A stretch of 64,000 nucleotides of DNA from a virus: positions 57,374 to 121,373 of the IMG/VR virus record IMGVR_UViG_3300037882_003154; one strand, written 5' to 3'. The position numbers were made by a program, and so were the translations under genes. Positions 8,555 through 48,920 of the stretch are shown here, one piece after another (position 1 is the stretch's first letter; each line of letters starts with the position of its first letter). The notes beneath the pieces were generated by a model. It made no database searches and was not told the DNA's origin. It saw only the letters and a list, made by a program, of their open reading frames with translations.

Positions 8555-9264
8555 ATTTTTTCTAAGTCTTTAATACCATCTATTTCTAGTACAAACCCAT
8601 GATTATTTTTTTTTGTTATAAGCTTTCCACCATTATCAATAATATAGTTGAGAGCCTCAAACATACAGGACGTTCTATTTTCTTTATTATATACATACTT
8701 TCTCAGATTATAAAGCTCTGCGCCCGTGAAAAACCCAACCTGTCCCCATTTTTTGACAAGATTATATGCGAACAAAGTGGCTAGGTTGTCATCATATGAA
8801 TTAAGCCCTATTTCTTGTGGTCTAAAATGATCCGTGTCATAGATTATATTAGATGTTTGGGCATACAGATCAGAGATATATTCATTATTGAATAACAGAT
8901 CGCCCATGATTAGAATAACACATGGGTTTAGAGATACCCTCAAACACATAGCCAGCGTTCTGACTTGACTGGTACTCTCATATTCCATATTTTCGACAAA
9001 CATTATGTTCTGTGGTAGAGAGTCAATTACTTTATCAGCCTGAAATCCCAGCCCATATATGATATTGGCATTTGGATAGCATTCTCTGATGATTCTGACT
9101 TGCCTTTGACCTAGCTTTTCATTTTTAATATCTAATAAAGACCTAGGACCACAATTGGTCATTTTGCCAGCACCAGCAGCCAATACAATAATGTCAAGGT
9201 TATTGTTTGGATTGACCGACCACTTTCTTTTTATTACAGAGGTAAACCTATTGAGTTTTGCCAC
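8551..9264 (-). CDS. Sugar-phosphate nucleotidyltransferase (NTP_transferase/LicC-like)
   Basis: IIVLAAGAG...GPRSLL signature, ILIMGDLLF. Start moved to GTG 9264. Confidence 0.7.
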   Translation of the reverse strand: MAKLNRFTSVIKRKWSVNPNNNLDIIVLAAGAGKMTNCGPRSLLDIKNEKLGQRQVRIIRECYPNANIIYGLGFQADKVIDSLPQNIMFVENMEYESTSQVRTLAMCLRVSLNPCVILIMGDLLFNNEYISDLYAQTSNIIYDTDHFRPQEIGLNSYDDNLATLFAYNLVKKWGQVGFFTGAELYNLRKYVYNKENRTSCMFEALNYIIDNGGKLITKKNNHGFVLEIDGIKDLEKI

Positions 9265-10036
9265 CCTGCCTCGCGTTTGCTTTGTTGATAATGTGCTGCA
9301 ACACAGCATTTGGGTTGTGTTGTGGCTTTTGCAAAATACCAGTATTTTTTATGGAAATCTTACATAGCGTCTCTGGAATGTGTATCAAGATAGATTGTTC
9401 GGCAGCTCTCAATAACAGATCATAGTTTTCAAACATTGGGAGACCAGTATCGAAGATCCCTATCTTATTTAATATCATAGAACTAATAAAAAACGACACA
9501 TGCCCATAATATGTATTATATATGTTGTGTATATTAAAGGACCTTAGATATTGTTCAAATTCAACCCCACCAATATTTATGATATGATCTGAATATACAG
9601 CCCCAATCACACTTGGATTGTCTATAAATTCTATAACACTCTTGCTGACTTTGCCATCTAGATAGATATCATCGGCATCCAAAAAGCCAAAAATGTTGGC
9701 TATTGAGCTCAATGATTGTATGCCTATGTTTTTTGCATAGCATTGGCTACTATGCTTGTGCAGTCGAACTCCGTTGACGTGTACATTGTTCTTAATGCCA
9801 GCGAACACTTCGTTTTGGCTATCGTCCATATGTGATTCATAGTCTTTAACATAGCCCTTTATATTATCCCAACTACTATCCTCGGAGCAGTCATCAACTA
9901 CCATGATATATTTGTTGGGATAGTCCTGAGACACGGCACTGTCTATGGCATTCAGAACACTGTCCGCCATATTATAGTTGGGTACTATTATTCCAACTGC
10001 TGGCAAGTTTATGTTTTTTGTAGTATCTGCGCCCAT
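9248..10036 (-). CDS. Glycosyltransferase family 2
   Basis: IIVPNYN, VVDDCSED, FLDADD (DXD), ENYDLLLR. Confidence 0.9.
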   Translation of the reverse strand: MGADTTKNINLPAVGIIVPNYNMADSVLNAIDSAVSQDYPNKYIMVVDDCSEDSSWDNIKGYVKDYESHMDDSQNEVFAGIKNNVHVNGVRLHKHSSQCYAKNIGIQSLSSIANIFGFLDADDIYLDGKVSKSVIEFIDNPSVIGAVYSDHIINIGGVEFEQYLRSFNIHNIYNTYYGHVSFFISSMILNKIGIFDTGLPMFENYDLLLRAAEQSILIHIPETLCKISIKNTGILQKPQHNPNAVLQHIINKANARQGGKTQ

Positions 10037-13764: not shown

Positions 13765-15504
13765 TTATGTTCCACACAAAAACTCCTTATGATTTTCAAT
13801 ATTACTATCTGGTTTAGCATGAGTAATATAATAGGGCTTTTCTCTATTCTCTATACCACATCTTACCTTTTCCCAATTATTGATATTATTTCTCATATCA
13901 AATAACTGTTGCAACATATTATTAAGCTGGAAAGGCTCTGGTGTTGGACGAATTCCCACCATCGAAAAATCATTAATATACATATTGCCGCCATTAACTA
14001 TTTTGCCACCATATGTAAGGCTCTTAACAAGATTAAGCGCAAAATATGTATTGAGCTTTTCTGGCATTCCCAGGACATTCACAATAGCCCAATCAACCAT
14101 CTGAGACATGGATATATTAGATGGATATGTTGTGACAGGATTGTGTAATTTTGGTGGTGATTTCCAGGTTAATCTCCAATCAATGGGCTCCACACTATCA
14201 AAATATGCCATCCATTTTTTCGTTGTCTCTTCCCAATTAAAATGTTTCTCAACACACTTTCTGGTATCAAATCCACGCTTTTTTCTTAATGACTCCGGCA
14301 ATGAGAAAAATTTGATGAGTATATCTACTATTGAATCTGGGTCTGGCTTAGCCCTATGTGTATGTGTTGTTACATCTCTTGATTTAGACAAAAGCTCTAT
14401 TGGATATGCCTTGCATTTATTTATAAAGTCAATAGTACCAGAATAGTTAGTAACAGCCAGTGGTATGCCACACGAAGCCGCTTCTACACAAGGGATGCCA
14501 AACCCCTCTGAAGAAACTGGCTGAACATATAAGTCCATCAAATTATATATAACGCCTAGCTGTTCAGGACTAATGCCATGTTGTGTATTAGGCAACGTGG
14601 CTCCTGGCTGACCACAGTGAGGACAGAACACCCTACTATCAGCCCATAATTCCACAAATATATTGTGGCAATTTCTGCACAAATAGGTAAATAATACCTT
14701 GTGCATTATATTTTCTTCTTGTAGAATTAGTGGTAGGTTCCACCCAAGATCTGGATAAGAAGTATGACAATATAGATAGGTTCTTTGCCCCAAATCTTTA
14801 TTGCTTTTTTCACAATAATCAAGGAATTTTCTAAAAGCCTGAAATAGGTCGGGAAACAGTTTGCGAGCCTGGTTTCGCATCACAGTTCCAACAATATTGA
14901 TATTTTTACCAAACCCAAATTTTGCTTTGAGACCCTGTTTATCAAGTATTGGATTAAAGGTCTTAAAATCACCACCTGGAGGATTGGCTGATAATATTTT
15001 GAGAGACCCGCCGGTTTGGTTTTCTAGTAGACACTTAGCCCATTCAGTATATGTAAAGAGACAGTCCGCCTCCATCATTTGACCTATCCAGTCGGTGGCT
15101 TGTGGCTCACCATCGACGGTTGGCATATAGGCTATTTTATAGAGTGGTCTAAATGGAGAAGAAAACAGATGGGTGCAATACCAAGAATCGCTGATATCAA
15201 ATACTATATCTGGTTTAAAGTCAAGTACAACATCTTCATATCTCCATCCACCAAATTGTGCAAATCCATCTGCATTGTGTTGTGCTATACCGGCTTGGTC
15301 ATTGGGTTCAGGTGCATTAGGATAGACTCGCCAAGGTATAGAATAAGTTCTTTGGTCTGCCAGTGTACAGTATGAGGCGTGTTCCGCAATACAAAATTTA
15401 TTGGTAGCATAGAGCCTATCCAATAGATTTTTGTAATACACAGCATAACCACTAGACAAAAAAGTAGCTTCGCTTCTAGCCAACAGCCTTAATTTTCTAG
15501 TCAC
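13765..15504 (-). CDS. Glycosyltransferase family 4 with internal Zn-ribbon
   Basis: VMRNQARK, EGFGIPCVEAASCGIP; inserted CRNC..(x)..CPHC. Confidence 0.85.
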   Translation of the reverse strand: MTRKLRLLARSEATFLSSGYAVYYKNLLDRLYATNKFCIAEHASYCTLADQRTYSIPWRVYPNAPEPNDQAGIAQHNADGFAQFGGWRYEDVVLDFKPDIVFDISDSWYCTHLFSSPFRPLYKIAYMPTVDGEPQATDWIGQMMEADCLFTYTEWAKCLLENQTGGSLKILSANPPGGDFKTFNPILDKQGLKAKFGFGKNINIVGTVMRNQARKLFPDLFQAFRKFLDYCEKSNKDLGQRTYLYCHTSYPDLGWNLPLILQEENIMHKVLFTYLCRNCHNIFVELWADSRVFCPHCGQPGATLPNTQHGISPEQLGVIYNLMDLYVQPVSSEGFGIPCVEAASCGIPLAVTNYSGTIDFINKCKAYPIELLSKSRDVTTHTHRAKPDPDSIVDILIKFFSLPESLRKKRGFDTRKCVEKHFNWEETTKKWMAYFDSVEPIDWRLTWKSPPKLHNPVTTYPSNISMSQMVDWAIVNVLGMPEKLNTYFALNLVKSLTYGGKIVNGGNMYINDFSMVGIRPTPEPFQLNNMLQQLFDMRNNINNWEKVRCGIENREKPYYITHAKPDSNIENHKEFLCGT

Positions 15505-16417: not shown

Positions 16418-17014
16418 TTACTTCATTATTTCAATAAAACGCTTTGGATCTGATAGAACTTGTTTTATCCTATCATATCCCTCTACGACATTTAACTTTT
16501 GGGCTAATTTATCTGTGCTCTCATTTAGACCATTTTTAGATACCTCCAGTAATACATTTTGAAGTGACGCTTGTTTGGTGTTGTTCGATTTGTCTAATTC
16601 AAGCTGACAAAAATCTAGTATAGATTGGGCTCCACTAGATATTGTTAGTAAATCACCGCGTGTCGATATAAGTTTAACTAAGTGAAAACTGTATTTTACC
16701 AGTAGTATTAAGGATGCCATGTTGATATATAAGAAGTATCCACATGCATATATTGGAATATCATGGTGAGATTTTCTAGATATATCATTATTATAAGTGG
16801 TCTCTTGTACTATCGAACACATGTTGTCTTGGAATAATAGTGTGTTTACCACACATATCTTGTTGGTTAGATGTGGTACAAATAGTGTTATGTGTTCATA
16901 TTTGCTCTTTTTAGTTCTGGTATTTGTTTCTTCGTTTAGACTATACAGCTTAATGATACTACATGTGTAGTCATTGTCTTCTAATATCTTAATAATCTCA
17001 GATTTAAATTTCAT
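16418..17014 (-). CDS. Hypothetical protein coupled to the dnaE C-terminal gene
   Basis: 198-aa ORF; TAATG overlap with the dnaE-C stop. Confidence 0.6.
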   Translation of the reverse strand: MKFKSEIIKILEDNDYTCSIIKLYSLNEETNTRTKKSKYEHITLFVPHLTNKICVVNTLLFQDNMCSIVQETTYNNDISRKSHHDIPIYACGYFLYINMASLILLVKYSFHLVKLISTRGDLLTISSGAQSILDFCQLELDKSNNTKQASLQNVLLEVSKNGLNESTDKLAQKLNVVEGYDRIKQVLSDPKRFIEIMK

Positions 17015-19644
17015 TATATCTGTATAACTTCCATTATGGTGAGTTTATTATTAAAATTAGTTCTATTTCCAACCACAATTACCGAATTGTTTTCTACTAG
17101 TAGATCACCATATTGGGCTATTTTATCCCCAAACATTGTAGCCCCATCAACCATACCAGTCTCATCAAAAAAATTAATAAACAACATTTTTTGTCCGGTA
17201 TTTTTGCCAGCCCTTATTTCATATTCTGACACCCTGGATATCTGACAGGCTATAGCAATTTGTTGTGTTCCTATGCCATTATTATAGTCTGCACAGGTTG
17301 AATTGGCAATAGAAATATCTTTTGAGTTTAGTTCCGACACCGAAACCGCTATTCCCAAAAGTTTTTCTTCATCGTTTGCCATAGAAACAATTGTGTCTTC
17401 CATAGAATAGGGTGGGCTCTCTAGGGACTTTATTATATCATTGACAATAACTTGTCTATTTTTATTTTTGGATTTAGTATTATGCAATGCATCCAAGAGC
17501 CCCTGGTACTTATCACAATTAGTAATAATACTGGTCTGTTCGCCATTACTTAGTTCTTGCCATTTTGAATATTCATAACACATTAGGGTCCTGGTCATAT
17601 TAAATGGAAGAGATCCACACTTAATCATATTCTCTATGCCAGTCTTATTAACATTTGTCGCTACTAAGCACAGGAACTCCAACCAAGACAGTTGTGTTAT
17701 GTTTTTGCCAGTATTTGATATGGCTTCTCGTAATTTTGATATAACAGAATCACCGACACCCCTAATATCTCTAAGCCCAAACCTTATACACCCATTATGT
17801 ATATGGAAGTCAGATTCCATAGTTATGATAGATGGTGGTAATACCTTTATACTAAATCTTTTACAGTCGTCTATGAGCTCTTTTTTCTCTTTTTTGGGAT
17901 CGAGTCTTTCTTTGGCATATTTTAGATAAGTTTTAAAGAATTCCAGTGGATAGTTAGCTTTATAATATGCTGTGTAGTATCCTATATGGGCGTACGCCAC
18001 ACTGTGCGACAGGTTAAACGAGTATCTTTGGCTTCTCTTTATATTATCCCATATTGCCCTGGCACTATCATCATCAACAACGCCATGACTCTTGCACTTA
18101 TCTATAAAAGTTGTCTCGATTTCCGCCATAAGTTTTGGGAGCTTCTTGCCAATACTGTTGTGTATGACCATCCCATTGGCGATAATCCAGTGTATTTGTT
18201 CTCTTGGTCTGCTTCTATCTAAATTGTCTACTGTAAAATCATAGACATTTTGTTTACCAAACTTTGGTCTGATTTCTTTGACAGCGCCGTGGTCGATATC
18301 TCTTTGTTTTTTGGTATTTGATAATAGATCGCCTATATTAGATATCATTTCCTCTGACATATATTGAGATAAAATAGGATCCTTGCTTATCTTGTATATA
18401 GATGCCACATCATCGAATATCATCCTATATTGCTGGCTTTCTTTGGCTTTTTTACACACAATTTTTGTGTATATATTCTGTATGCTCAAAAGGAGCTGCA
18501 TTTGTTTTGCTAATTTTTTGGACTTAAAGATAATATATACACTATTTTTTATTGCATGTCTTTGTAAACCACAAGATAATATAAACCCCAGAGCCCTATT
18601 AATGGTGGCGATATCAGCCCCAAGAATAAATCTGGGTAGATATTTTTTCGTAGCCGACTTTGCACAGTCTTGCAAGAGTGGTGCTAGCCTTTGTCTTTCT
18701 GCATATCCTATCCTTAGCTGATTTTTGTTATAGAATGTGGGCTTTTTCCCAAAGACCCTCAGATACAAGTCTGAGTATTCACTTAGTATGTGTTCACTAC
18801 AGTGTGAAAAAAAGCTCTTGTCTTTCGCCCCTTTACCAAAATAATAACCAGAATATACTATCGCCCCCACTAATGTGTATAGATCTTGGGTCTTTTCTGT
18901 ATCGGTCAATGCTGTATTATATATATGGGTTTGATCACCACCCTCAATAATATTCTGTATGTTTAATATTGAATTATACAAAGAGTCTTTAGACTTTATG
19001 AATCCACCCTTTGTTATTGAGTAAATTTTATGATTATGTGTACAGGCGATTGACATTCCATTATTTAATACTATCTCGTGTACTTCTTTTTTATCACTTA
19101 GCCATATATCATATATTTGTACCCAGACGAACTCTTTCATATTAGGGTGTATTGATAGAAACGAATCATTCTTATATTCAGCTTCTAAGATCTCTTTTAT
19201 TGTGATCCACCCCCTAGTCTTAGACAAAAACATAGTGTCGTCAGTAACGCATTTTCTAAGAGTCTCTGATTCAGCAAGAGTGAACCCGGCTATATCCCTG
19301 GATATTTGAATAGCCTGTTCCTGAAAAACCAAAATGCCCTGTGTCTTTTTCAAGATGGGCTCTAGTGCGGGGTGCACATATTCTACCGGTTTTTCTCCAT
19401 TTTTTCTCATACAATACACATCTGTAAGAGACTTATTATCTAACTTAGACTCTAAGCAGCCGGGTCTTATAATAGATATAATATCAGACAGTTCTTCGAT
19501 AGATCTTGGTTTGGCTTTTTTACAATACCTAGATCCCAACCAATTTTCTAGCTGAAAAACACCTTTGGTATGTCCCTCACATATCATATCCCATGTTTTT
19601 GTGTCATCTAGTGGGACCGACATTAGTTTTTCGGTACTATTCAT
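17014..19644 (-). CDS. dnaE: DNA polymerase III alpha, C-terminal half (fingers, HhH, OB-fold), intein-containing
   Basis: PLDD..TW..GVFQLE, IRPGCLE, GILVFQEQAIQI, YSFNLSHSVAYA, IRFGLRDIRGVG, final OB-fold. Start moved to MNSTEK. Confidence 0.9.
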   Translation of the reverse strand: MNSTEKLMSVPLDDTKTWDMICEGHTKGVFQLENWLGSRYCKKAKPRSIEELSDIISIIRPGCLESKLDNKSLTDVYCMRKNGEKPVEYVHPALEPILKKTQGILVFQEQAIQISRDIAGFTLAESETLRKCVTDDTMFLSKTRGWITIKEILEAEYKNDSFLSIHPNMKEFVWVQIYDIWLSDKKEVHEIVLNNGMSIACTHNHKIYSITKGGFIKSKDSLYNSILNIQNIIEGGDQTHIYNTALTDTEKTQDLYTLVGAIVYSGYYFGKGAKDKSFFSHCSEHILSEYSDLYLRVFGKKPTFYNKNQLRIGYAERQRLAPLLQDCAKSATKKYLPRFILGADIATINRALGFILSCGLQRHAIKNSVYIIFKSKKLAKQMQLLLSIQNIYTKIVCKKAKESQQYRMIFDDVASIYKISKDPILSQYMSEEMISNIGDLLSNTKKQRDIDHGAVKEIRPKFGKQNVYDFTVDNLDRSRPREQIHWIIANGMVIHNSIGKKLPKLMAEIETTFIDKCKSHGVVDDDSARAIWDNIKRSQRYSFNLSHSVAYAHIGYYTAYYKANYPLEFFKTYLKYAKERLDPKKEKKELIDDCKRFSIKVLPPSIITMESDFHIHNGCIRFGLRDIRGVGDSVISKLREAISNTGKNITQLSWLEFLCLVATNVNKTGIENMIKCGSLPFNMTRTLMCYEYSKWQELSNGEQTSIITNCDKYQGLLDALHNTKSKNKNRQVIVNDIIKSLESPPYSMEDTIVSMANDEEKLLGIAVSVSELNSKDISIANSTCADYNNGIGTQQIAIACQISRVSEYEIRAGKNTGQKMLFINFFDETGMVDGATMFGDKIAQYGDLLVENNSVIVVGNRTNFNNKLTIMEVIQI
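18157..19251 (-). mobile_element. Cis-intein (365 aa) with degenerate LAGLIDADG-like core in dnaE-C
   Basis: Begins C(VTDDT) after ETLRK, block B ACTHNHKIY, ends VIHN followed by Ser (SIGKK). Excision restores the conserved LRK/SIGKK motif. Confidence 0.9.
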
Positions 19645-19651
19645 TGTATTA

Positions 19652-20323
19652 TTATGATACAAGTGTGTCTGGGGTTTCTTCGTCATTACCAAAAGCCCCC
19701 GCAAATTTAGCAGCCTTGGATTTTTTTCTTTGCCACTCTAAAAATCTAACAGCAATGGCTTTGGTATCTAGCACATCTTGTAGCGCTTCGTGTGCTTTGC
19801 CGCCCGCATCTATACCAAAAAACTTTCTTAGATAATCTAGGTTGTATCTGTAGGGTTCTTTGAGGCTCTCAAATGAAAACCACATCATTTGCATTGTATC
19901 TATGTGATATGGGCTGAATAGTGTTGGTCTATTAGTTTTATCTACCGGACCAAACTCTAAGCAAAGTCTATCAAAAATGATCTTGTCAAACCCTATGATA
20001 TTATGACCACATAGTATGGGACGGTCCCAAGTAGATTTGCCTTTAGAGAATTTATCTACAAATTTTACAAAATCAGACCACACTTCGGATATAGACGGGG
20101 CTTTTTCTAGCTGTTCTATGGTCTTTTTATTAACATCTAGGGCTTGCTGCTCTACTGTGGCAAAGTCGGTTGGTCTGATAAGAGAATAGAATCTAGATTC
20201 TTTTTCTTCTTGTAGAGTTCTGCTGTCTAATACTATGGCGGCAAGCTCTACTGGCTGACATGTGTAGGGGTTTGCTGATGATGTTTCAAAATCAGCCACT
20301 AATATTTTGTTAAAATTAATCAT
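19652..20323 (-). CDS. DEDDh 3'-5' exonuclease (DnaQ-like)
   Basis: ADFETS (ExoI), GHNIIGFD (ExoII), HEALQD (ExoIII). Confidence 0.9.
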   Translation of the reverse strand: MINFNKILVADFETSSANPYTCQPVELAAIVLDSRTLQEEKESRFYSLIRPTDFATVEQQALDVNKKTIEQLEKAPSISEVWSDFVKFVDKFSKGKSTWDRPILCGHNIIGFDKIIFDRLCLEFGPVDKTNRPTLFSPYHIDTMQMMWFSFESLKEPYRYNLDYLRKFFGIDAGGKAHEALQDVLDTKAIAVRFLEWQRKKSKAAKFAGAFGNDEETPDTLVS

Positions 20324-21094: not shown

Positions 21095-21972
21095 TTTGCC
21101 CCATTCATTTTAATATAACTGAATATGTGTGCTATTACATCAACACTCCAGCCATTGCCAATCGCTATCCTTCGTTGAGCATCCGAGATAATGGACGTAT
21201 AGTTATCTGGTAGTTGTTGTAACCTTTCTAGTTCTATACAGTTCAAATTGCCTATCTTGCCATTATCAAATAATAGCTTGATTTTCCCACTGCAATTAGA
21301 TAGTATTGTGCGAAACTTACCATCTAAAAGACAATATCTTTGGTCTTCCCAATAGTTATTCCCACAACCATCCTTTTTTGTATATTCATAATATAGCGGC
21401 TTTTTTTTTGTTGATGCTATAACATCCGTGTCTAGCCATTTTCTTTTATCACTTCTGTCGTCGGTTATTATATCTCTGACCACTATATTTTTGTCTTTTG
21501 GTTGTTCAATCCCAGAAACATTGGTCCAATATAATCTTCTTCTGTGTTGTGCCGATACTAAAGCAGAGTTTATTTCTATTGGCTGTACACCCATGTAGTC
21601 CGATATTATATCAGACCACTCTTTTTTCATAACAACATTTTCTAACAGAAAATATCTTGGCGATATCTCTTGTAGAAGACGAATATATTCAAAAAATAAT
21701 TTACCGCTAGTACCATCCATACCCTGTTTTTTACCACTACTACTGAATGATACACAGGGGCTTCCACCAATTAATAGGTCTGTCTTGGGCAAATTAACAG
21801 CAGAAATAGCCGATATATCACCAAGCTGTATCGTGTGTGGGAAATGATATTGGGTTACTTTTATAGCATGTTTATTAATTTCTGATGCATAATAATTATC
21901 ATATCTTATATTAGCTCTGTGCAATGCAAGTTGACCACAACTAATACCATCAAATAAAGATAGAACATTCAT
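21091..21972 (-). CDS. DNA (cytosine-5) methyltransferase
   Basis: LSLFDGISCG (motif I), GGSPC (IV), LLENV (VI), QHRRRLYW (VIII), IGNGW (X). Confidence 0.9.
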   Translation of the reverse strand: MNVLSLFDGISCGQLALHRANIRYDNYYASEINKHAIKVTQYHFPHTIQLGDISAISAVNLPKTDLLIGGSPCVSFSSSGKKQGMDGTSGKLFFEYIRLLQEISPRYFLLENVVMKKEWSDIISDYMGVQPIEINSALVSAQHRRRLYWTNVSGIEQPKDKNIVVRDIITDDRSDKRKWLDTDVIASTKKKPLYYEYTKKDGCGNNYWEDQRYCLLDGKFRTILSNCSGKIKLLFDNGKIGNLNCIELERLQQLPDNYTSIISDAQRRIAIGNGWSVDVIAHIFSYIKMNGAK

Positions 21973-23879
21973 GGCGATACATTTCTTTGTATTTCAGCTA
22001 ACTTAGATAATGCCGAAAGCCCAAGGCAATCTAATTTAAGAATTCCAAGACTTTCTGCATCTCTCATGTCTATGTATATTATTTGTCTATCACTGCTCTT
22101 ATCATGCCCCATCGGAACTATATCTACTAATGGGACCGGAGAAACAAATAGGGCTGATGCATGTTTAGACATAGCCTTAATTGTCCCCTCAAGTCTTATT
22201 GCCTGTTTGAAATATCTAGCATATTTACCAACTATAGCACCACCCTCATCTATAGAGCACCACTCTGATAGCTCCTTTTGGTTATTTTGCAATGACCATA
22301 GAATTATACTGGGATCTTCACCATCTTCTTTCATCTCCTGTAGTTCGTCGGCAATGGCTGCTTCATCGGGAATGTGTTCGGTAATTTTATTCATTTCTTC
22401 AAAGCCACAAATGTCGTGGGCTCTTAATACATCTTTAAGAGCCCCTCTGCCTTTGAACTTTGAAAACGTACATATTTGTGCTACTTGTTCTATTCCATAT
22501 TTATGTTCTATGTACTCTATTACTTTGTGACGATCATCTATTGGGAAGTCTGAATCAATGTCTGGCAGGTCTATTTTCTTCTTGTCAAGTCTTGCAGGAT
22601 TAATGAATCTTTCAAAGATTAAGCCATATTTTATTGGGTCTATCTCAGTAATGTTCATTAAGTAGCACATCAAAGAGCCAGCACAGCTACCACGAGAAGG
22701 TCCCACAAGTATGCCATGATTTTTAGCCCAGTTGATATAATCTTGAACAATCAAAAAGTAATCAGACAAACCATAAGGAGATATTACCCCAATTTCGTAT
22801 TTAATTCTGTCTACATACTTTTGCTGTTCTTCTTGAGCAATGCATCCAATGATTTTTTTTCTCCATCCATCTCTGCATAAGTGTGTTAAATATTCATTGG
22901 AATCCTTGTGTTCTTTTGGTATGCCAAATTTTGGTAAGAAAGGAGTATTACTTAATGAGTATGTCTCACACTTTTCTGCTATTTCTAATGTATGAGATAT
23001 CTCTTCAAGAGTATTATTGGCTAACATCTCTTGTGGTGATGGGATATGATAATTGTTAGATTTAAAAAACCCACTAAGTCCAAATTCTTCATCATTATCC
23101 AGAGCCCTCTGTATCTTCTTAAAATTGGTCTTTAACATCGTACATAACAAAACCCTTTGATCTTGAGCATCTTCTTGTCTACAATAGTGGGCATCTGCTG
23201 TAGATACACAAGGTATATTGTTTTTTTTGCCAATTTTTCTGAGACAGTCGGCTATTACATTTTGAACAGGAAGATTTTCCCTGTCTATTAACTGTATTTC
23301 TAAGTAAAAATTTTCTTTACCAAATATTTCTATGTGTTTTTGGGCTAGTTCCAGGGCTTTGTCATACCAATCGGGGACAAGTAATTGTTCGGCTTCTTTG
23401 GTGGTATTAGCCCTATAAGACAGTTTTGGATCTGCAAATAATATATTAGCCATTTGTGACCCAGGATGACCACTGAAACACAATAGATTGCCCATAAATC
23501 CACTAAATTGTTCTAGCTGTAATCTGGGCTTATAGTAAAAGTTTTCCTTTAGATTAGAAAATGAAACAGCCTTAATAAGACTTTGCCAGCCCATCTTATT
23601 CTTAGCAAGAACGACCAAGTGTGCTAGCTGTCTATTTTTTTGGGTCTTAATAGATGGGTGATCATTAGACAGATAAAATTCACACCCTAATATGGGTTTT
23701 TTATTGGCTTCTAAGAACAGTTTATTAAAAGCAAATGCCTCTGATACAGTACCATGATCTGTAATGGCACATCCCGGCAAACCAATTTCAGTTATCCTAT
23801 TTAGGATGTCCTTAGGCTTGCTAACACCATCTAGTACAGATGCGTGGCTGTGGGTATGAAGACTAAAATAAGTGCTCAT
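21969..23879 (-). CDS. dnaE: DNA polymerase III alpha, N-terminal half (PHP + catalytic palm/thumb)
   Basis: HTHSHASVLDG, ITDHG, TADAHY (PHP); GPSRGSCAGSL, FERF, PDIDSDF, SKHASA, KLDCLGL, then a stop codon. Confidence 0.92.
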   Translation of the reverse strand: MSTYFSLHTHSHASVLDGVSKPKDILNRITEIGLPGCAITDHGTVSEAFAFNKLFLEANKKPILGCEFYLSNDHPSIKTQKNRQLAHLVVLAKNKMGWQSLIKAVSFSNLKENFYYKPRLQLEQFSGFMGNLLCFSGHPGSQMANILFADPKLSYRANTTKEAEQLLVPDWYDKALELAQKHIEIFGKENFYLEIQLIDRENLPVQNVIADCLRKIGKKNNIPCVSTADAHYCRQEDAQDQRVLLCTMLKTNFKKIQRALDNDEEFGLSGFFKSNNYHIPSPQEMLANNTLEEISHTLEIAEKCETYSLSNTPFLPKFGIPKEHKDSNEYLTHLCRDGWRKKIIGCIAQEEQQKYVDRIKYEIGVISPYGLSDYFLIVQDYINWAKNHGILVGPSRGSCAGSLMCYLMNITEIDPIKYGLIFERFINPARLDKKKIDLPDIDSDFPIDDRHKVIEYIEHKYGIEQVAQICTFSKFKGRGALKDVLRAHDICGFEEMNKITEHIPDEAAIADELQEMKEDGEDPSIILWSLQNNQKELSEWCSIDEGGAIVGKYARYFKQAIRLEGTIKAMSKHASALFVSPVPLVDIVPMGHDKSSDRQIIYIDMRDAESLGILKLDCLGLSALSKLAEIQRNVSP

Positions 23880-43011: not shown

Positions 43012-43233
43012 CTATGCTGACTTTTCCATGATATTAGTGAACATCTTCTTGTAGTTTCTTATAACACAATCACAATAGTCTAATTGTGTTTGTGGTTCAC
43101 CATATTTAGAATAATCAATAGGGGCTGGTTGAATCATTCTATAGCCCCGCCCATGACATTTTCTACATGTAGCTTTGGCATATGCATTGGCTTTGCCTAG
43201 CATATCATTAATTTGACTATTTTCCACTTGCAT
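43012..43233 (-). CDS. Small Cys-rich (Zn-finger-like) protein
   Basis: CRKC.G.G...C.C. Confidence 0.55.
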   Translation of the reverse strand: MQVENSQINDMLGKANAYAKATCRKCHGRGYRMIQPAPIDYSKYGEPQTQLDYCDCVIRNYKKMFTNIMEKSA

Positions 43234-43598
43234 TAGCCAGCATCATCCAATAGTGATTGGATTTCCTCTGGTGTGCTATTAGCTGCAACACTCAATACAG
43301 CATTCACAAGCCCACTTGCATTTTTAGCAAAAGCCCTTGGGGACATATCGCCATTATCTACAAGACTTCTGCGTAGATTAAGCCTCACACCTATTCTTTG
43401 GATTAGTGTTGGATTAGCAGCATCGGCTGCAACAGTAGCCGAGTCAGCCTTGCACTTTTGTAGGGCTTGGATCAAAGGAACTAGAGCCTCTGCAATTAAG
43501 ATAATAATTGAGGGATCAAATGCGAATTCTTTATCGCTTGGATGGTTGCTTTGTAGTTTAGCAACAACTTTTTCAGCAAATGCTTGTACTTGGTTCAT
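43233..43598 (-). CDS. Hypothetical amphipathic/membrane-associated protein
   Basis: FDPSIIILIAEALVPLIQALQKC hydrophobic helix. Confidence 0.55.
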   Translation of the reverse strand: MNQVQAFAEKVVAKLQSNHPSDKEFAFDPSIIILIAEALVPLIQALQKCKADSATVAADAANPTLIQRIGVRLNLRRSLVDNGDMSPRAFAKNASGLVNAVLSVAANSTPEEIQSLLDDAG

Positions 43599-43621: not shown

Positions 43622-44014
43622 TTAGTGGTGTGAAACTCTTAGGGTACGAATATTGCGTTGTTTTACCACCACTCTTTGTACATTTCGTACCCGAACACTT
43701 TGGAAGAGATTCTGTACAGAATTTCGTAGATTTTGTAGCAATGGTTCTCGTACTACAACCTTTTGGACTACTTGTCTTTGAACATGTCGAACTTCTTGAA
43801 CTACAAACTGTGGAGCCAAAGCTAGCTTACGCACAACATTAAATCGCACAGTGTTGAAATGTGGTGATAATACCACTCTCTGCACAACAAAATTGTCATG
43901 TGATACACATAGGTTTCTTACGCGTTCAATGCGTAGATTATCGCAAGATTTTACCACAGACCCAAAGGATAAAAATGAGGCGACCAAGGCACCAATCAAA
44001 AAACGTCTAATCAT
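43622..44014 (-). CDS. Secreted low-complexity V/R/Q-rich protein
   Basis: Signal-peptide-like N-terminus; repeated VQRVV/VQKVV/VRVR tracts. Confidence 0.65.
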   Translation of the reverse strand: MIRRFLIGALVASFLSFGSVVKSCDNLRIERVRNLCVSHDNFVVQRVVLSPHFNTVRFNVVRKLALAPQFVVQEVRHVQRQVVQKVVVREPLLQNLRNSVQNLFQSVRVRNVQRVVVKQRNIRTLRVSHH

Positions 44015-44050: not shown

Positions 44051-44677
44051 TTACTTTAGCTTAGCCCAATCTTTCAATATAATTACATCTTCATCTGACA
44101 AAGGATCCCCACCCTTTGGCATTTTTTGTTCAAAAGCCTGAATAAAAATATCAAACTTTTGTTCTCGATTCAGTTGAGACAGCTTGTTATCTTTAATGAT
44201 CTCAAGTCCACCATTTATTGTATCCCCCGAATGGCATTTTGCACAGTTCTTTTTTAATATTTCAAGGGATTTTAATTTTAATTTATCTGTTGGTGTTTCT
44301 GGGCTGGCTGGCTCTACTGGTTCAGTATCATCTGGTGATGGATTATCTACTGGTGGTGGAGCATCTGGTTTTGTTGGCAAGGATAGTTTAGAAATCAGTT
44401 TGGCGACTATTTTCTCTGATAATTTTTCTAAATCATCGTCATCAATAGATAGTTCTGCTGAATCTTTAACCCTATAATAATATTCGAGCCCAAGGTCTGT
44501 TACTGGTACCTCAAATATAAAATCATTGTGTGATACAAATCGTCTATCAAAATTCCTACTAATGAACCTAACATTGCTCCGAGCTATGTTGAGCCCAATG
44601 TCACACTGATTGTCACCAGCATTAGCAAAGTTACAAGCGAACGATAAGATTGTGGCTAAGAATATTTTTTTAAACAT
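44051..44677 (-). CDS. Secreted monoheme c-type cytochrome (Planctomycete cytochrome C-like domain)
   Basis: Signal peptide ..FANA, Pro-rich linker, LKKNCAKCH (44231..44245), distal KMPK.G.PLSDED...LKDW. Confidence 0.8.
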   Translation of the reverse strand: MFKKIFLATILSFACNFANAGDNQCDIGLNIARSNVRFISRNFDRRFVSHNDFIFEVPVTDLGLEYYYRVKDSAELSIDDDDLEKLSEKIVAKLISKLSLPTKPDAPPPVDNPSPDDTEPVEPASPETPTDKLKLKSLEILKKNCAKCHSGDTINGGLEIIKDNKLSQLNREQKFDIFIQAFEQKMPKGGDPLSDEDVIILKDWAKLK

Positions 44678-44690
44678 TGAATGCCCCCTG

Positions 44691-46340
44691 CTACTTGTTT
44701 ATCCAATCAAAGTCTTGTTCTTTAATTGTAATCTTGAGACCATTGGCTACAAAAACATAGAGACCCTCAGAATTCTTATTTGGGCTCTCTAAGGTAATTA
44801 TATCACCGATTTGTAGTTCTGCAATTACACTTTCTTGTTTTGTAATCTTAAGATGTTTTTTAATCCTAACTGATAGTGGATTGACATCTTGTGTTTCTGT
44901 CTTGGATGTTGGTGGAGCCCTTTCTATTCTATGTATTAGCAACATAGCTTGAGCAAATATGCCACTATCTAGATCTTCCCACACATCTCTATTTATTGAT
45001 TTTTCTGTTTTTACTAGAGCCCCAAGTCTACCACTAATAGTTGGTGTACATTTGGTCTTAAAATCATCAACAGACAGCCCACATTCATATGCGGCATGAG
45101 AGATAGATAGAGATCTTTCATACCACTTAAGGATCTCTTGGTATAGTTTGGCATTCTCTAAACCACTTAGCCCATTAATAGACTGTACAGCCCCATTAAA
45201 TATCTCTTTATCAGCCGCAAACAACTTGCCCATAGGGCTCAGATAGAACCTTTCTACAGCAATTTGATATTCTTTGTTATATGTTAACAACTCTACACCA
45301 GATTTTAAATGTTCGCTTAGAGCATTGATGGGAATATTGATAGCGTCTGCATGGCATATAACACAAGATCTAGCGGTTCTAACCCGTATATCTTTAGTGT
45401 CCGTTCTATCCCAAACCACCGTTGGATCACCAAATTCGACACGTTTATTCTTACCATCATATAGAAAATACACCTGGAGACCTAGTTTGTTGGTAGTAAA
45501 CGTCTCACCTGCATCTCTGTCATTACGAGATAAGCCGGTTGGGTCTAGATTTTCGATATAGTCTTGGGCTCCTTCCGATGTTTTAACATCTGAAGTTTCG
45601 TAATAATAACCGAGCTCTGTTCTTGTTCTTGATATTTGTCTATTATTCCTAGACACCCCAGACGACCCTTTGTCTACTAATATCCCTTTTTCTATAGCCA
45701 GTCCCTCTATTTTCTTAACATCTACACCCCAGGCAGCCCTAAACTCTTCTAGTGTTTTTGGCACACCGGTTTTAGCATATAGTAATTCATAGTATAGTGG
45801 TGGCAATTCCCTATCAACTTGTTTTGTTACATCACTAGTATGAATGATAAACCAATCGGCTCTTACTATTGCATTTCCAGCCAGAGCCCTTAGTAATTCA
45901 TAATTTTGATATTTTATCCAAGGCTCTCTAAAATATGGCTCATGTATACTGACTTTTTCCCAGGCTTCTGGGGTCCAGCCGTAATCTCGTATATCAATCC
46001 ACCAGAGATCATTGTCGCCCTCTACTTTTCTAGCCTTTTGTACAATATTCTCATAGCTTAAACTATGCATCCAAAAGTTAAGAGTTTTAATTATACCATC
46101 TTTAACTTTTATATTTTCTTGTCTATTAATATTTTCATTAGTGATAACAATAGTATCTTCTACTGGAATATTGTACACAGAAAAAAATCTGATGTAAGGT
46201 CGCAAATCTGTCGATATAGTAACTAGAAATTCACTTGCAGCCTCAACTTCTGATTGTGGGCTGTTTATTTTGGCTTCTTGCCCAATAGAAATTCCAGTGA
46301 GGCAAAAAACAATTGCCAAACTAAAGATGAGCCTAAACAC
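44691..46340 (-). CDS. Secreted 549-aa protein with single CXXCH heme-c motif
   Basis: Signal peptide; RADWFI..LYYELL, SGVSRNNR, GGE-like AGE, GLQVYFL, SCVICH (45351..45365); possible C-terminal SH3-like region. Confidence 0.7.
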   Translation of the reverse strand: MFRLIFSLAIVFCLTGISIGQEAKINSPQSEVEAASEFLVTISTDLRPYIRFFSVYNIPVEDTIVITNENINRQENIKVKDGIIKTLNFWMHSLSYENIVQKARKVEGDNDLWWIDIRDYGWTPEAWEKVSIHEPYFREPWIKYQNYELLRALAGNAIVRADWFIIHTSDVTKQVDRELPPLYYELLYAKTGVPKTLEEFRAAWGVDVKKIEGLAIEKGILVDKGSSGVSRNNRQISRTRTELGYYYETSDVKTSEGAQDYIENLDPTGLSRNDRDAGETFTTNKLGLQVYFLYDGKNKRVEFGDPTVVWDRTDTKDIRVRTARSCVICHADAINIPINALSEHLKSGVELLTYNKEYQIAVERFYLSPMGKLFAADKEIFNGAVQSINGLSGLENAKLYQEILKWYERSLSISHAAYECGLSVDDFKTKCTPTISGRLGALVKTEKSINRDVWEDLDSGIFAQAMLLIHRIERAPPTSKTETQDVNPLSVRIKKHLKITKQESVIAELQIGDIITLESPNKNSEGLYVFVANGLKITIKEQDFDWINK

Positions 46341-46353
46341 ATTGAGCCTTTTT

Positions 46354-47265
46354 CTAGATTTTCACTACCCTATATCCAGGGATTGTAATAGATTCCACTG
46401 AACCGACTATCTTTATTATAGTCTCATGGGATGGATTTGGTGTGGGGTTTGGGGTTGGTGGGGTTGGAGTTGGGGTTGGGGTTGGTGGCGGATTGATCGG
46501 TGGCACATTTTGTGGTTGACCATATAATCTCTGGAGCCTTGGTATATCATCATTTTCCTGTGGCTTATCTACATTGGGATTATAGTATGGTGCTAGAAGT
46601 GCCGATTGTATTTTGGAATGGTTTAATCCAAGATTATGACCAACCTCATGGCAATGAACGTTCCTGAGCAATATGCCCCTCTTGTTCTTGTTATCAATCC
46701 ATGTCTCAGCCAAATCTAATGTTAGCGTTAGTTTGCCAGTAAAGCTAGGTGAATTGGGCAAATATGCATAAGCTAATACGTTCCCAGGAGTACCAAGCTC
46801 TTCACTAGCAGCCCTACTAGTTAAGATCACAAGATTTGCATTATCAGAAAAAACCTCTCTAAATTTAATGCCACAAACAGCAGATATAGAGTCATAAGAC
46901 CGTCTATATATGTCCCTCTGTTCTTGTTTTGTTAATCCATCAACCCATTCAGCAATATAATAGCTCAGTTCTTTAAGAGCCCATTTATTAACAGATGTAG
47001 CAGGTGTATTAGGACCTCTGCGCCAGAAAAACTCAGGAACATCTGGGTGGGCGCATCTAGGATAGTTCATAGCCCTAAATGTCTTGAGACCGACACCATT
47101 TTCAACTATATTGGCATTATATTGAAATTCTTTAATAGCCAAAGACACTTCGTCATCCGTGGCATCATCTGGTAATCTATAGTAGTGTTTCAGATATGAT
47201 AGAACATATAATAGATTGTCTTTGGCTTTGGTTAGATCAGCCTCTAAAAAGTGTTCTAGTCCCAC
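46354..47265 (-). CDS. Matrixin (M10/MMP-like) metalloprotease with propeptide
   Basis: AIKEFQ..M.YPRCAHPD propeptide, KW..L.Y, LAYAYLP, HEVGHNLGLNH, ALLAP, DDI..Q.LYG, Pro/Thr tail. Confidence 0.88.
   Translation of the reverse strand: MGLEHFLEADLTKAKDNLLYVLSYLKHYYRLPDDATDDEVSLAIKEFQYNANIVENGVGLKTFRAMNYPRCAHPDVPEFFWRRGPNTPATSVNKWALKELSYYIAEWVDGLTKQEQRDIYRRSYDSISAVCGIKFREVFSDNANLVILTSRAASEELGTPGNVLAYAYLPNSPSFTGKLTLTLDLAETWIDNKNKRGILLRNVHCHEVGHNLGLNHSKIQSALLAPYYNPNVDKPQENDDIPRLQRLYGQPQNVPPINPPPTPTPTPTPPTPNPTPNPSHETIIKIVGSVESITIPGYRVVKI
46431..46500. repeat. GGGGTT-type low-complexity repeat encoding a Pro/Thr linker
   Basis: tggggtttggggttggtggggttggagttggggttggggttgg encodes PPPTPTPTPTPPTPNPTPNP on the minus strand. 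Confidence 0.8.
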
Positions 47266-47274
47266 AATTACCGC

Positions 47275-47538
47275 CTACGGATTAGAAAACAGCTGCTTAA
47301 AAAACATAAACATCAGTGTTATAAATGGGGCTATTAGACCAGCTAAAAATCCCACAACACCAGCCTTAACCTTCAAGCCGTTTATATCTAAGGCTATCGG
47401 TTGTAATTTTGCTTCTAGGTCTCTGAATCTAGTGTCTAGCTTCACGTCTAGATTCGAGAATCTTTCCGCCAGATCTTCAAGTGCATTCAGGACGAACTTT
47501 TTGTTCTCAACCCAATCGCCGTTTTCAATATTTGGCAT
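47275..47538 (-). CDS. Holin-like small protein (coiled coil + C-terminal TM helix)
   Basis: Heptad region followed by AGVVGFLAGLIAPFITLMFMFF. Confidence 0.45.
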   Translation of the reverse strand: MPNIENGDWVENKKFVLNALEDLAERFSNLDVKLDTRFRDLEAKLQPIALDINGLKVKAGVVGFLAGLIAPFITLMFMFFKQLFSNP

Positions 47539-47560: not shown

Positions 47561-48211
47561 CTAAGCCAAAGTACGAGCCGGATAATCCTTAAGTGTTGGT
47601 ATCAATGCCGGTTCTTTGATTACAAATTCGCCAGGGACCCCAATGGTCGGTGAAGCAGCATCATCAGGACCCACACCATTCCCAATACCTATGGCATTGG
47701 CAGTAAAATAGTTCTTGTTACTATATGTCAAAACAAGTCTTGAACTGTGTCTACCGGCACTATTTTGTAATGAGAATGTATAAAGATGGCTTGTTCGGAT
47801 CACAACCACCTTATTAACTCTACGACGATTGCCAAAATCAGCAGCACCACTGTTCATAAGTGTATTGGGCAATCCCGCTAGGGTGTCGGACTGTCGTATA
47901 ATAACATATTTGCCCTTGGTCATAGAGGCAAAAACGCCGCTATTAAGCACCTTAAATGTTGAAGAACGAGTTGTGGTTACGGTAGCCCCATCGCCAGAAA
48001 GTAGATCTGCAATTTGATCCGCAGTCATCGGATTGGTAACTTTACTACCATAAAATCCATGAACAGCAAGATTGGTATAACTAACATGTTTTGTAATTGG
48101 GCTGTTTGAGGCGATATTGCCAGCAAAAGCCATAGCCCCACCATTATTACGAAATGCATTTGCTGAGATTACTTTACTAATACCAGTTCTGCTGTTTGAA
48201 ACAATAGCCAT
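47561..48211 (-). CDS. Hypothetical protein, possibly virion-associated
   Basis: Small-residue-rich composition, AASPT.GVPGEF..DYPART tail; preceded by the GGTGTATTT motif. Confidence 0.5.
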   Translation of the reverse strand: MAIVSNSRTGISKVISANAFRNNGGAMAFAGNIASNSPITKHVSYTNLAVHGFYGSKVTNPMTADQIADLLSGDGATVTTTRSSTFKVLNSGVFASMTKGKYVIIRQSDTLAGLPNTLMNSGAADFGNRRRVNKVVVIRTSHLYTFSLQNSAGRHSSRLVLTYSNKNYFTANAIGIGNGVGPDDAASPTIGVPGEFVIKEPALIPTLKDYPARTLA

Positions 48212-48275: not shown

Positions 48276-48920
48276 TTACAAGATATTTTCTGCTTGTTTA
48301 GAGTAGTTGAATCTAGCTCCATAAATACCGGCGCTACGTAGCAATGGAAGGTGTCTCTTATTTAAAAGTTGGCTATAACAAATTGTGTTAATGCCTATTT
48401 TTTGAACAGCCTCACATGCTATTATATTCTCATTTGGGTCATCTGCAAACACACCCGAAGAACTAATGATGGTTGTTATACCGGTCTTTTGCCTAATTAA
48501 TGAGCAGATGGCAACAAAGTCTTGAATGCTGAATAGTTTATAGTCTACAATGAATCTGATCTCTATTTTGTTTGTATGGGCTAGTGTGCTACAGGTATTT
48601 AGATCATTAAAAAAATTTTTCTTATCATTATTTGTTAGATAAGTGTGGTTTATCACAACATCAACAATATCACAGTTTTGTTTAGTAGACTCTAAAATAG
48701 CATGTAATTTTAAAGGAATGCTATCATTTCCATATGGATAGTTAATTAGACTACCAAATTTAGTAAGAGTTTCAACTTCTTTTAAATATGGTCGGGCTTT
48801 AAAGGCATATCCAACTGGTACACAAAAAGAATCAAAAGAATGCGATGTGGCTAAGTGTGCAGCCTCAACAATCTCTTTGTAGTTAATGTGGTGTGAAACA
48901 CAGCAAATTTCTAAAATCAT
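48276..48920 (-). CDS. Deoxyribose-phosphate aldolase (DeoC)-fold protein lacking catalytic lysines
   Basis: FDSFCV, INYPYG, VDVVIN, IRFIVD match DeoC; the KTSTG motif appears as ISSSG. Confidence 0.7.
   Translation of the reverse strand: MILEICCVSHHINYKEIVEAAHLATSHSFDSFCVPVGYAFKARPYLKEVETLTKFGSLINYPYGNDSIPLKLHAILESTKQNCDIVDVVINHTYLTNNDKKNFFNDLNTCSTLAHTNKIEIRFIVDYKLFSIQDFVAICSLIRQKTGITTIISSSGVFADDPNENIIACEAVQKIGINTICYSQLLNKRHLPLLRSAGIYGARFNYSKQAENIL

Follow-up and report, generated by a model that had tools for sequence, protein, structure and literature searches.

Two adjacent genes for predicted exported proteins with one CxxCH motif each

Two adjacent genes on the minus strand of a virus genome, IMG/VR record IMGVR_UViG_3300037882_003154, encode proteins that each begin with a predicted signal peptide and contain a single CxxCH motif. 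The stretch analysed here, referred to as the window, comprises 64,000 nucleotides (bases 57374-121373 of the 133,464-bp record; CheckV completeness 85%), and all positions given below are those of the window. The larger protein, P0002 (44691..46340, minus strand), is 549 amino acids (aa) long, starts at a GTG codon and was defined from its open reading frame (ORF), its homologues and an AlphaFold model. The smaller, P0001 (44051..44677, minus strand), is 208 aa long and was defined from its ORF translation, Pfam and an alignment of homologues. The original prediction, made from the letters of the sequence, had described both as secreted c-type cytochromes, and translation confirmed each of the details on which it drew: a signal peptide, CAKCH and a distal MPK..PLSDED..LKDW motif in P0001, and a signal peptide with one SCVICH inside a framework of RADWF, SGVSRNNR and GLQVY motifs in P0002.

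In P0002 the predicted Sec signal peptide occupies residues 1-21 (46278..46340, minus strand) and includes a hydrophobic 10-mer with a Kyte-Doolittle (KD) value of 2.99, while the CVICH that is predicted to attach heme c (C326, C329, H330) occupies residues 326-330 (45351..45365, minus strand). The leader of P0001 is basic, then hydrophobic, and ends ANA/GD. Composition-preserving shuffles of each protein produced a CxxCH by chance in 0.03-0.04% of cases.

The small protein carries a class I-type cytochrome c domain

Behind its signal peptide P0001 has a conserved N-terminal region with the motif PVxxLGLxYYY, which is joined through a Pro-rich linker to a C-terminal domain of the class I/PSCyt1 type (residues 135-208; 44054..44275, minus strand), recognized by Pfam, alignment and hhalign. 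Within that domain CAKCH lies at residues 145-149 (44231-44245) and Met186-Pro187 at 44117-44122, followed by the PLSDED..LKDW motif. To define the family we aligned 11 sequences, the ten homologues of P0001 being two that were found by sequence search and eight ORFs that lie directly downstream of P0002 homologues. C145, C148, H149 and P187 are invariant among them, and M186-P187 is kept in ten, the eleventh having a misaligned MPK. Thus the last 70 residues of the small protein hold a CxxCH, a Met-Pro about 40 residues further on and a terminal helix with a Trp, an arrangement held in common with the class I c-type cytochromes of the Cytochrome_CBB3, Cytochrom_C and PSCyt1 families, to which the phage protein adds its conserved N-terminal region and Pro-rich linker.

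Pfam Cytochrome_CBB3 (PF13442) aligns to residues 139-204 of P0001 over profile positions 8-67 of 68 (26.0 bits, with a cut-off of 27; E 1.2e-5) and matches nine of the 11 sequences at E <= 0.01. PSCyt1 (PF07635) matched three of the 11 in hmmscan, with a best E of 0.0033, and left P0001 itself unmatched. When the small family was aligned by hhalign to the Pfam-annotated PSCyt1 regions of two cellular proteins, the probabilities were 96.4% (P0069, E 1e-9) and 95.2% (P0068), with CxxCH, Met-Pro and the terminal Trp helix all in register. Because of this conservation of CxxCH and Met-Pro, together with the Cytochrome_CBB3 matches and the PSCyt1 alignment, we conclude that the small protein ends in a His/Met class I-type cytochrome c domain, as had been proposed when it was called class I and Planctomycete cytochrome C-like.

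The large protein belongs to an extensive family with an invariant CxxCH

No model in Pfam (at E <= 1), PHROG or NCBIfam matched P0002. Relatives are nevertheless plentiful: a word-indexed search returned 69, and an exhaustive search at E <= 1e-3 returned 1976 representatives (50% clustering), of which 1025 reached E <= 1e-10. We aligned 197 members with MAFFT. All but two share the CxxCH at the same place, those two being N-terminal fragments of 250-255 aa, and 192 members contain exactly one CxxCH. C326, C329 and H330 are 100% conserved in this alignment, as are R234, D251 and E279, and the CxxCH is likewise invariant in alignment A1, which includes fused planctomycete forms. No second conserved Met, His or Lys was found among the 197 members. 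A hydrophobic N-terminal 10-mer is present in 142 of 155 full-length members, as compared to 2 of 155 when a window inside the protein was taken as control. Conservation of the CXXCH among homologues had been named beforehand as a point on which the original prediction could fail; the motif is retained both here (195/197) and in the small protein (11/11). On the whole the original prediction is borne out. The single conserved CxxCH and the leader of the large protein stand, but it has no standard cytochrome c domain and belongs to an unnamed family.

The AlphaFold model of P0002, built with the family alignment, has a mean predicted local distance difference test (pLDDT) of 89.9 and comprises a core (residues 28-475) and a separate SH3-like barrel at the C-terminus (residues 487-549; 44694..44882, minus strand). 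Structural matches of this barrel are to SH3 domains, bacterial SH3b included, and many homologues carry Pfam SH3_3 (PF08239) at the same place, so that the tail qualifies as a bacterial SH3 domain on fold as well as, in its homologues, on Pfam. The tail is found in phage forms only and probably holds the large protein at the cell wall.

The motif lies in a subdomain whose predicted fold may resemble that of cytochrome P460

Within the modelled core lies a beta-sheet subdomain that is predicted to bind the heme (residues 194-345; 45306..45761, minus strand). Among 48,161 chains its top five structural matches were the representatives of the cytochrome P460/c'-beta group, 8BRK, 6HIU, 7S5O, 2JE3 and 6AMG, and all five span the whole subdomain, including its C-terminal CxxCH. 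The predicted features that it may share with cytochrome P460 and c'-beta (PF16694) are a beta-sheet heme domain with CxxCH near its C-terminal end and a periplasmic location, and in addition the heme of the large protein is predicted to lack, like theirs, a strong sixth ligand. In P0002 the subdomain is part of a 450-aa core, in which an alpha/beta region precedes it and a helical region follows. Cytochrome P460 has a Lys-heme cross-link and c'-beta a Phe cap; no Lys is conserved in the large-protein family. Pfam, hhalign and a profile search of PDB sequences gave no sequence or profile match of the large protein to PF16694, and it shares no homology of that kind with P460 beyond the motif. 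Since hhalign saw the CxxCH columns alone, we do not claim homology to P460; on the basis of its model the subdomain is described as P460-like in fold, and the protein is not filed as a member of the P460 family.

Distant phages keep the pair together, in most cases beside an M10 zymogen

We compared the window with related phage loci (L002-L004, L009-L013 and L025, plus L026, a near-duplicate of L025), which make up ten loci from nine distinct phage genomes. In all ten a large protein is followed directly by a protein of 196-250 aa with one CxxCH, although identity to P0002 falls to as little as 23%. The closest homologue pair, P0004 and P0072, shares one 5194-bp contig, and the 595-kb uncultured huge phage LR756511.1 also encodes a relative of the large protein (483275-484744; 30% identity over 68% of the query). 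The nearest ESM Atlas clusters are mostly from Uroviricota. Preservation of the gene order down to 23% identity argues for strong selection and for a real function in the periplasm of the infected cell.

Upstream of P0002 lies a gene for a zymogen of the Peptidase_M10 family that resembles matrix metalloproteinases (MMPs), with a PRCxxPD cysteine switch and an HExxHxxGxxH motif (46354..47265, minus strand; Pfam Matrixin E 1.8e-24). Such a gene precedes the large heme gene in nine of the ten loci, directly in eight and one ORF apart in L003, L013 being the only related locus without it. Both motifs are invariant in nine phage M10 homologues (window, L002-L004, L009-L012 and L025). These proteins have no obvious signal peptide, and they continue through a Pro/Thr-rich linker into a conserved C-terminal strand, IPGYRxxKI. 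A match of the M10 protein to PG_binding_1 was rejected as a sign of peptidoglycan binding, since MMP pro-domains, too, fall under this Pfam model. The intergenic gaps between the M10, P0002 and P0001 genes are 13 bp, Shine-Dalgarno-like sites precede the P0001 and P0002 starts, and no terminators or promoters above chance were found among the three genes, which therefore look co-transcribed. The large and small proteins form a deeply conserved phage cassette, usually accompanied by the M10 zymogen, which the original prediction had not noted.

The conserved block extends past the three core genes, since two further upstream genes, for a 216-aa protein of no assigned function (47561-48211, minus strand) and a DeoC-like protein (48276-48920, minus strand), have homologues at matching positions in three related loci each. 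Just upstream of the M10 gene is also a small protein with a hydrophobic C-terminus (47275-47538). Downstream of the cassette, a 121-aa protein without a Pfam match (43233..43598, minus strand) was found by blastp in the same relative position in four of eight related loci. Between its gene and the cytochrome pair is a 130-aa ORF with a leader (43622-44014), which is not conserved.

Cellular relatives fuse the same core to other domains

In the most distant matches of the large protein (P0068-P0070), which derive from Gemmataceae, Fuerstiella, Mariniblastus and Pirellulales, the core is fused at its N-terminal side to a PSCyt1/Cytochrom_C domain or to two of them. The expectation that domains encoded by separate adjacent genes in the phage would occur as fusions in planctomycetes is therefore borne out. 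In AFDB and the ESM Atlas the core is fused to PSCyt1 (Planctomycetota, Myxococcota), to WD40 together with PSCyt1, to DUF4384 (Pseudomonadota) or to a Ser/Thr kinase (A0A1N6J6H7).

The PSCyt1-fused proteins of planctomycetes, such as P0069 from a Gemmataceae metagenome-assembled genome and A0A5C1AH25 and A0A5C5VBX7 from AFDB, are uncharacterised. Like the phage protein they contain the core of about 450 aa with the invariant CxxCH, RADWF and equivalents of R234, D251 and E279, and their predicted structures superpose on it with template modelling (TM) scores of 0.64-0.70. The small phage cytochrome is a homologue of the PSCyt1 domain at their N-terminus. They are single polypeptides in which the cytochrome c domain is N-terminal and the SH3-like tail is absent, whereas the phage forms are specified by two genes, large then small, and have an SH3-like tail, a Pro-rich-tethered cytochrome with an additional N-terminal region, and an M10 companion. 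A survey of 201 Planctomycetota genomes found the core in only five, at times as several copies, and the cellular neighbourhoods of the core gave no functional clue and contained no M10 gene. At one Gemmataceae locus (L022) a DUF4384 gene (8951-9421) lies directly downstream of the core gene, followed by CHAT and TPR genes.

The record is a phage genome without cytochrome c maturation genes

The viral origin of the contig, on which the original prediction depended, is upheld by its IMG/VR record, by a terminase large subunit and by the replication genes and genes of nucleotide metabolism that accompany it. The terminase has weak PHROG matches, and it aligns to annotated terminases with 24% identity over 84% of its length (E 2e-27). 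Replication genes include those for DnaB, primase and a DNA polymerase in two pieces, of which one (17014-19704, minus strand) corresponds to positions 742-1074 of phrog_405 and the other (21969-23879, minus strand) to positions 42-613. The record also encodes a ribonucleotide reductase (RNR), ThyX, dCMP deaminase, ClpP, MT-A70 and several glycosyltransferases, and its genes are nearly all on a single strand. The cassette is embedded among nucleotide-metabolism genes, and not among lysis or structural genes. It lies inside a viral genome and between viral genes, as expected of phage auxiliary genes, and the cassette recurs in five other IMG/VR contigs. Relatives of the terminase, from phages of Bacillus and Microcystis, share no more than 24% identity with it, and the one pointer to a host is the distribution of the cellular homologues, which suggests a planctomycete.

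Genes for cytochrome c maturation had been reported as missing from the window, and this holds for the entire 133-kb record, in which Cytochrom_C_asm (PF01578) and ResB (PF05140) had no matches, while the same searches gave matches in control genomes. The genome has four ORFs with a CxxCH, and a leader is present only in those for the large and small heme proteins. One of the others encodes a 579-aa protein with a glycosyltransferase PHROG match (13765-15504, minus strand), whose CRNCH at residue 276 is probably incidental, since the protein has no leader. The other, a 73-aa ORF (43012-43233, minus strand) with CRKCHGRGY and a later CDC, also has no leader; its Cys motif seems to be that of a small zinc ribbon or of the DnaJ type and not that of a cytochrome.

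Discussion

The two genes probably specify a phage-borne periplasmic redox pair of heme c proteins that depends on the cytochrome c maturation apparatus of its host. Both proteins would be exported through Sec, as their leaders imply, and a Ccm or Ccs system, which we assume the host to possess, would attach heme covalently to the single CxxCH of each. That the host supplies this system is inferred from the absence of maturation genes in the phage record. The small His/Met-ligated cytochrome of class I/PSCyt1 type, on its flexible Pro-rich tether, would serve as an electron carrier. The large protein would hold one heme in a P460/c'-beta-like beta-sheet pocket with His330 as the proximal ligand and with the invariant R234, D251 and E279 as candidate pocket residues, while its SH3-like tail would keep it at the cell wall and electrons would pass between it and the small cytochrome. 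Because the family has no conserved Met, second His or Lys that could act as sixth ligand, this heme is predicted to be five-coordinate or weakly six-coordinate, and an open or weak sixth position would suit it to bind or convert a small molecule, and not simply to relay electrons. Since attachment of c-type heme occurs outside of the cytoplasm, neither protein could be a virion component, and both would have to act in the periplasm of the infected cell. A complex prediction with the large core, the mature small protein and two hemes scored 0.01 against a mark of 0.32, which is evidence neither for nor against an association.

As to the chemistry, the likeliest guess by analogy with the P460/c'-beta proteins, tentative and short of probable, is that the pair might convert or scavenge small nitrogen or oxygen species (NO, NH2OH, H2O2 or O2), with electrons passing by way of the small cytochrome.

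Several results weigh against this picture. The 26.0 bits of P0001 fall just below, by 1 bit, the Cytochrome_CBB3 cut-off of 27. The likeness to P460 was missed by Foldseek with either the whole model or the subdomain, PDB yielding only SH3 matches or noise and afdb_swissprot yielding noise. An hhalign comparison of alignment A3 with a P460 alignment of nine members, built from Planctomycetota genomes, matched only 10 columns around the CxxCH, at a probability of 5.8%, and the profile search of PDB sequences with the P0002 subdomain found nothing relevant. Conserved tyrosines of the large family (Y407, Y183, Y291 and Y136) could supply a sixth ligand. Finally, the kinase, WD40 and DUF4384 fusions of cellular relatives fit a role in sensing or binding as well as they fit an enzyme.

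This last point bears on what is, among the alternatives to a redox pair, the one that survives best, even though we regard it as quite improbable: that the large protein uses its heme to bind or sense a ligand and has no catalytic role. In the phage it would then be tethered to the wall and soak up a diatomic gas or other ligand, in cells it would form the periplasmic input of kinases and other multi-domain proteins, and the small cytochrome would do nothing but set its redox state. The nearest solved folds do include cytochromes c'-beta, which bind NO and CO, and the sixth ligand is not conserved in the large family. The cellular relative A0A1N6J6H7 is joined C-terminally to a Ser/Thr protein kinase, and further relatives are joined to WD40 or DUF4384 domains. 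The phage protein, however, is free and secreted and has no output domain, and an electron carrier that is dedicated to it and inherited with it would be expected of a turnover enzyme more than of a sensor. Moreover, the 100% conservation of three charged residues, R234, D251 and E279, in a core of about 450 aa looks more like an active site than like a simple gas pocket.

The steady company of the M10 zymogen raises another alternative, in which the pair would be an envelope or lysis accessory that works with this protease. For example, the wall-tethered heme protein might oxidise the thiol of the cysteine switch and so activate the protease, or it might oxidise components of the wall late in infection. 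MMP cysteine switches can be opened by oxidants, and the PRCxxPD switch is invariant in phage M10 proteins whose genes lie upstream in nine of ten related loci. Compatible with such a role are also the SH3-like tail of the large heme protein, the Pro-rich linkers shared by the M10 protein and the small cytochrome, and the small protein with a hydrophobic C-terminus (47275-47538) that adjoins upstream. Yet the M10 protein has no obvious signal peptide while the heme proteins are predicted to be exported, so that they would meet only after the membrane has been permeabilised. In addition, phage locus L013 and the cellular relatives of the heme protein do without an M10 neighbour, and the cassette keeps company with nucleotide-metabolism genes, not with genes for lysis or structure. 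A functional link between the heme pair and the M10 protease is possible, but a role as lysis accessory strikes us as decidedly doubtful. Least of all would we expect the CxxCH of the large protein to be a metal-binding or thiol-disulfide motif that leaves the small protein as the only cytochrome: Pfam cytochrome models all miss the large protein and hhalign to P460 picks up the motif alone, but the His right after the second Cys is 100% conserved, the protein is predicted to be exported, it is always paired with or fused to a cytochrome c domain, and those solved structures whose fold resembles that of the motif subdomain are without exception c-type heme proteins, in which CxxCH occupies the same place near the C-terminal end.

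Phages seldom carry auxiliary genes for redox proteins of the respiratory kind, since c-type cytochromes have to be exported and then matured by machinery of the host. The literature bears out the rarity that the original prediction had asserted, and the precedent we found is phage soxD, whose product carries c-type cytochrome motifs (Kieft et al. 2021, PMC8190135). As with the present pair, these motifs are encoded by a phage and need maturation by the host, but soxD adjoins soxC and belongs to a known sulfur-oxidation pathway (PMC8190135), whereas the pair described here has no relation to Sox and no known pathway. We found no paper on the large-protein family, on the function of PSCyt1 proteins or on P460-like phage proteins. 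While c-type heme proteins in phages are a known principle, the family of the large protein has no name, and the cassette that phages conserve has not been described.

In its boldest form, which we consider unlikely although worth stating, the large protein would found an unrecognised and mainly phage-borne family of P460-like catalytic heme c enzymes, tethered to the host cell wall by an SH3 tail and fed by a phage cytochrome c, that large phages might use during infection to rewire the nitrogen-oxide or oxygen chemistry of the periplasm or trigger the cysteine switch of M10 by redox. More generally, the large protein gives a handle on a big family that has no Pfam model and no characterised member and that includes the PSCyt1-fused proteins of Planctomycetota, and biochemists could conveniently begin with the small single-heme version from the phage, whose natural redox partner comes with it. 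Phages appear to place a redox module of their own in the periplasm of the host.

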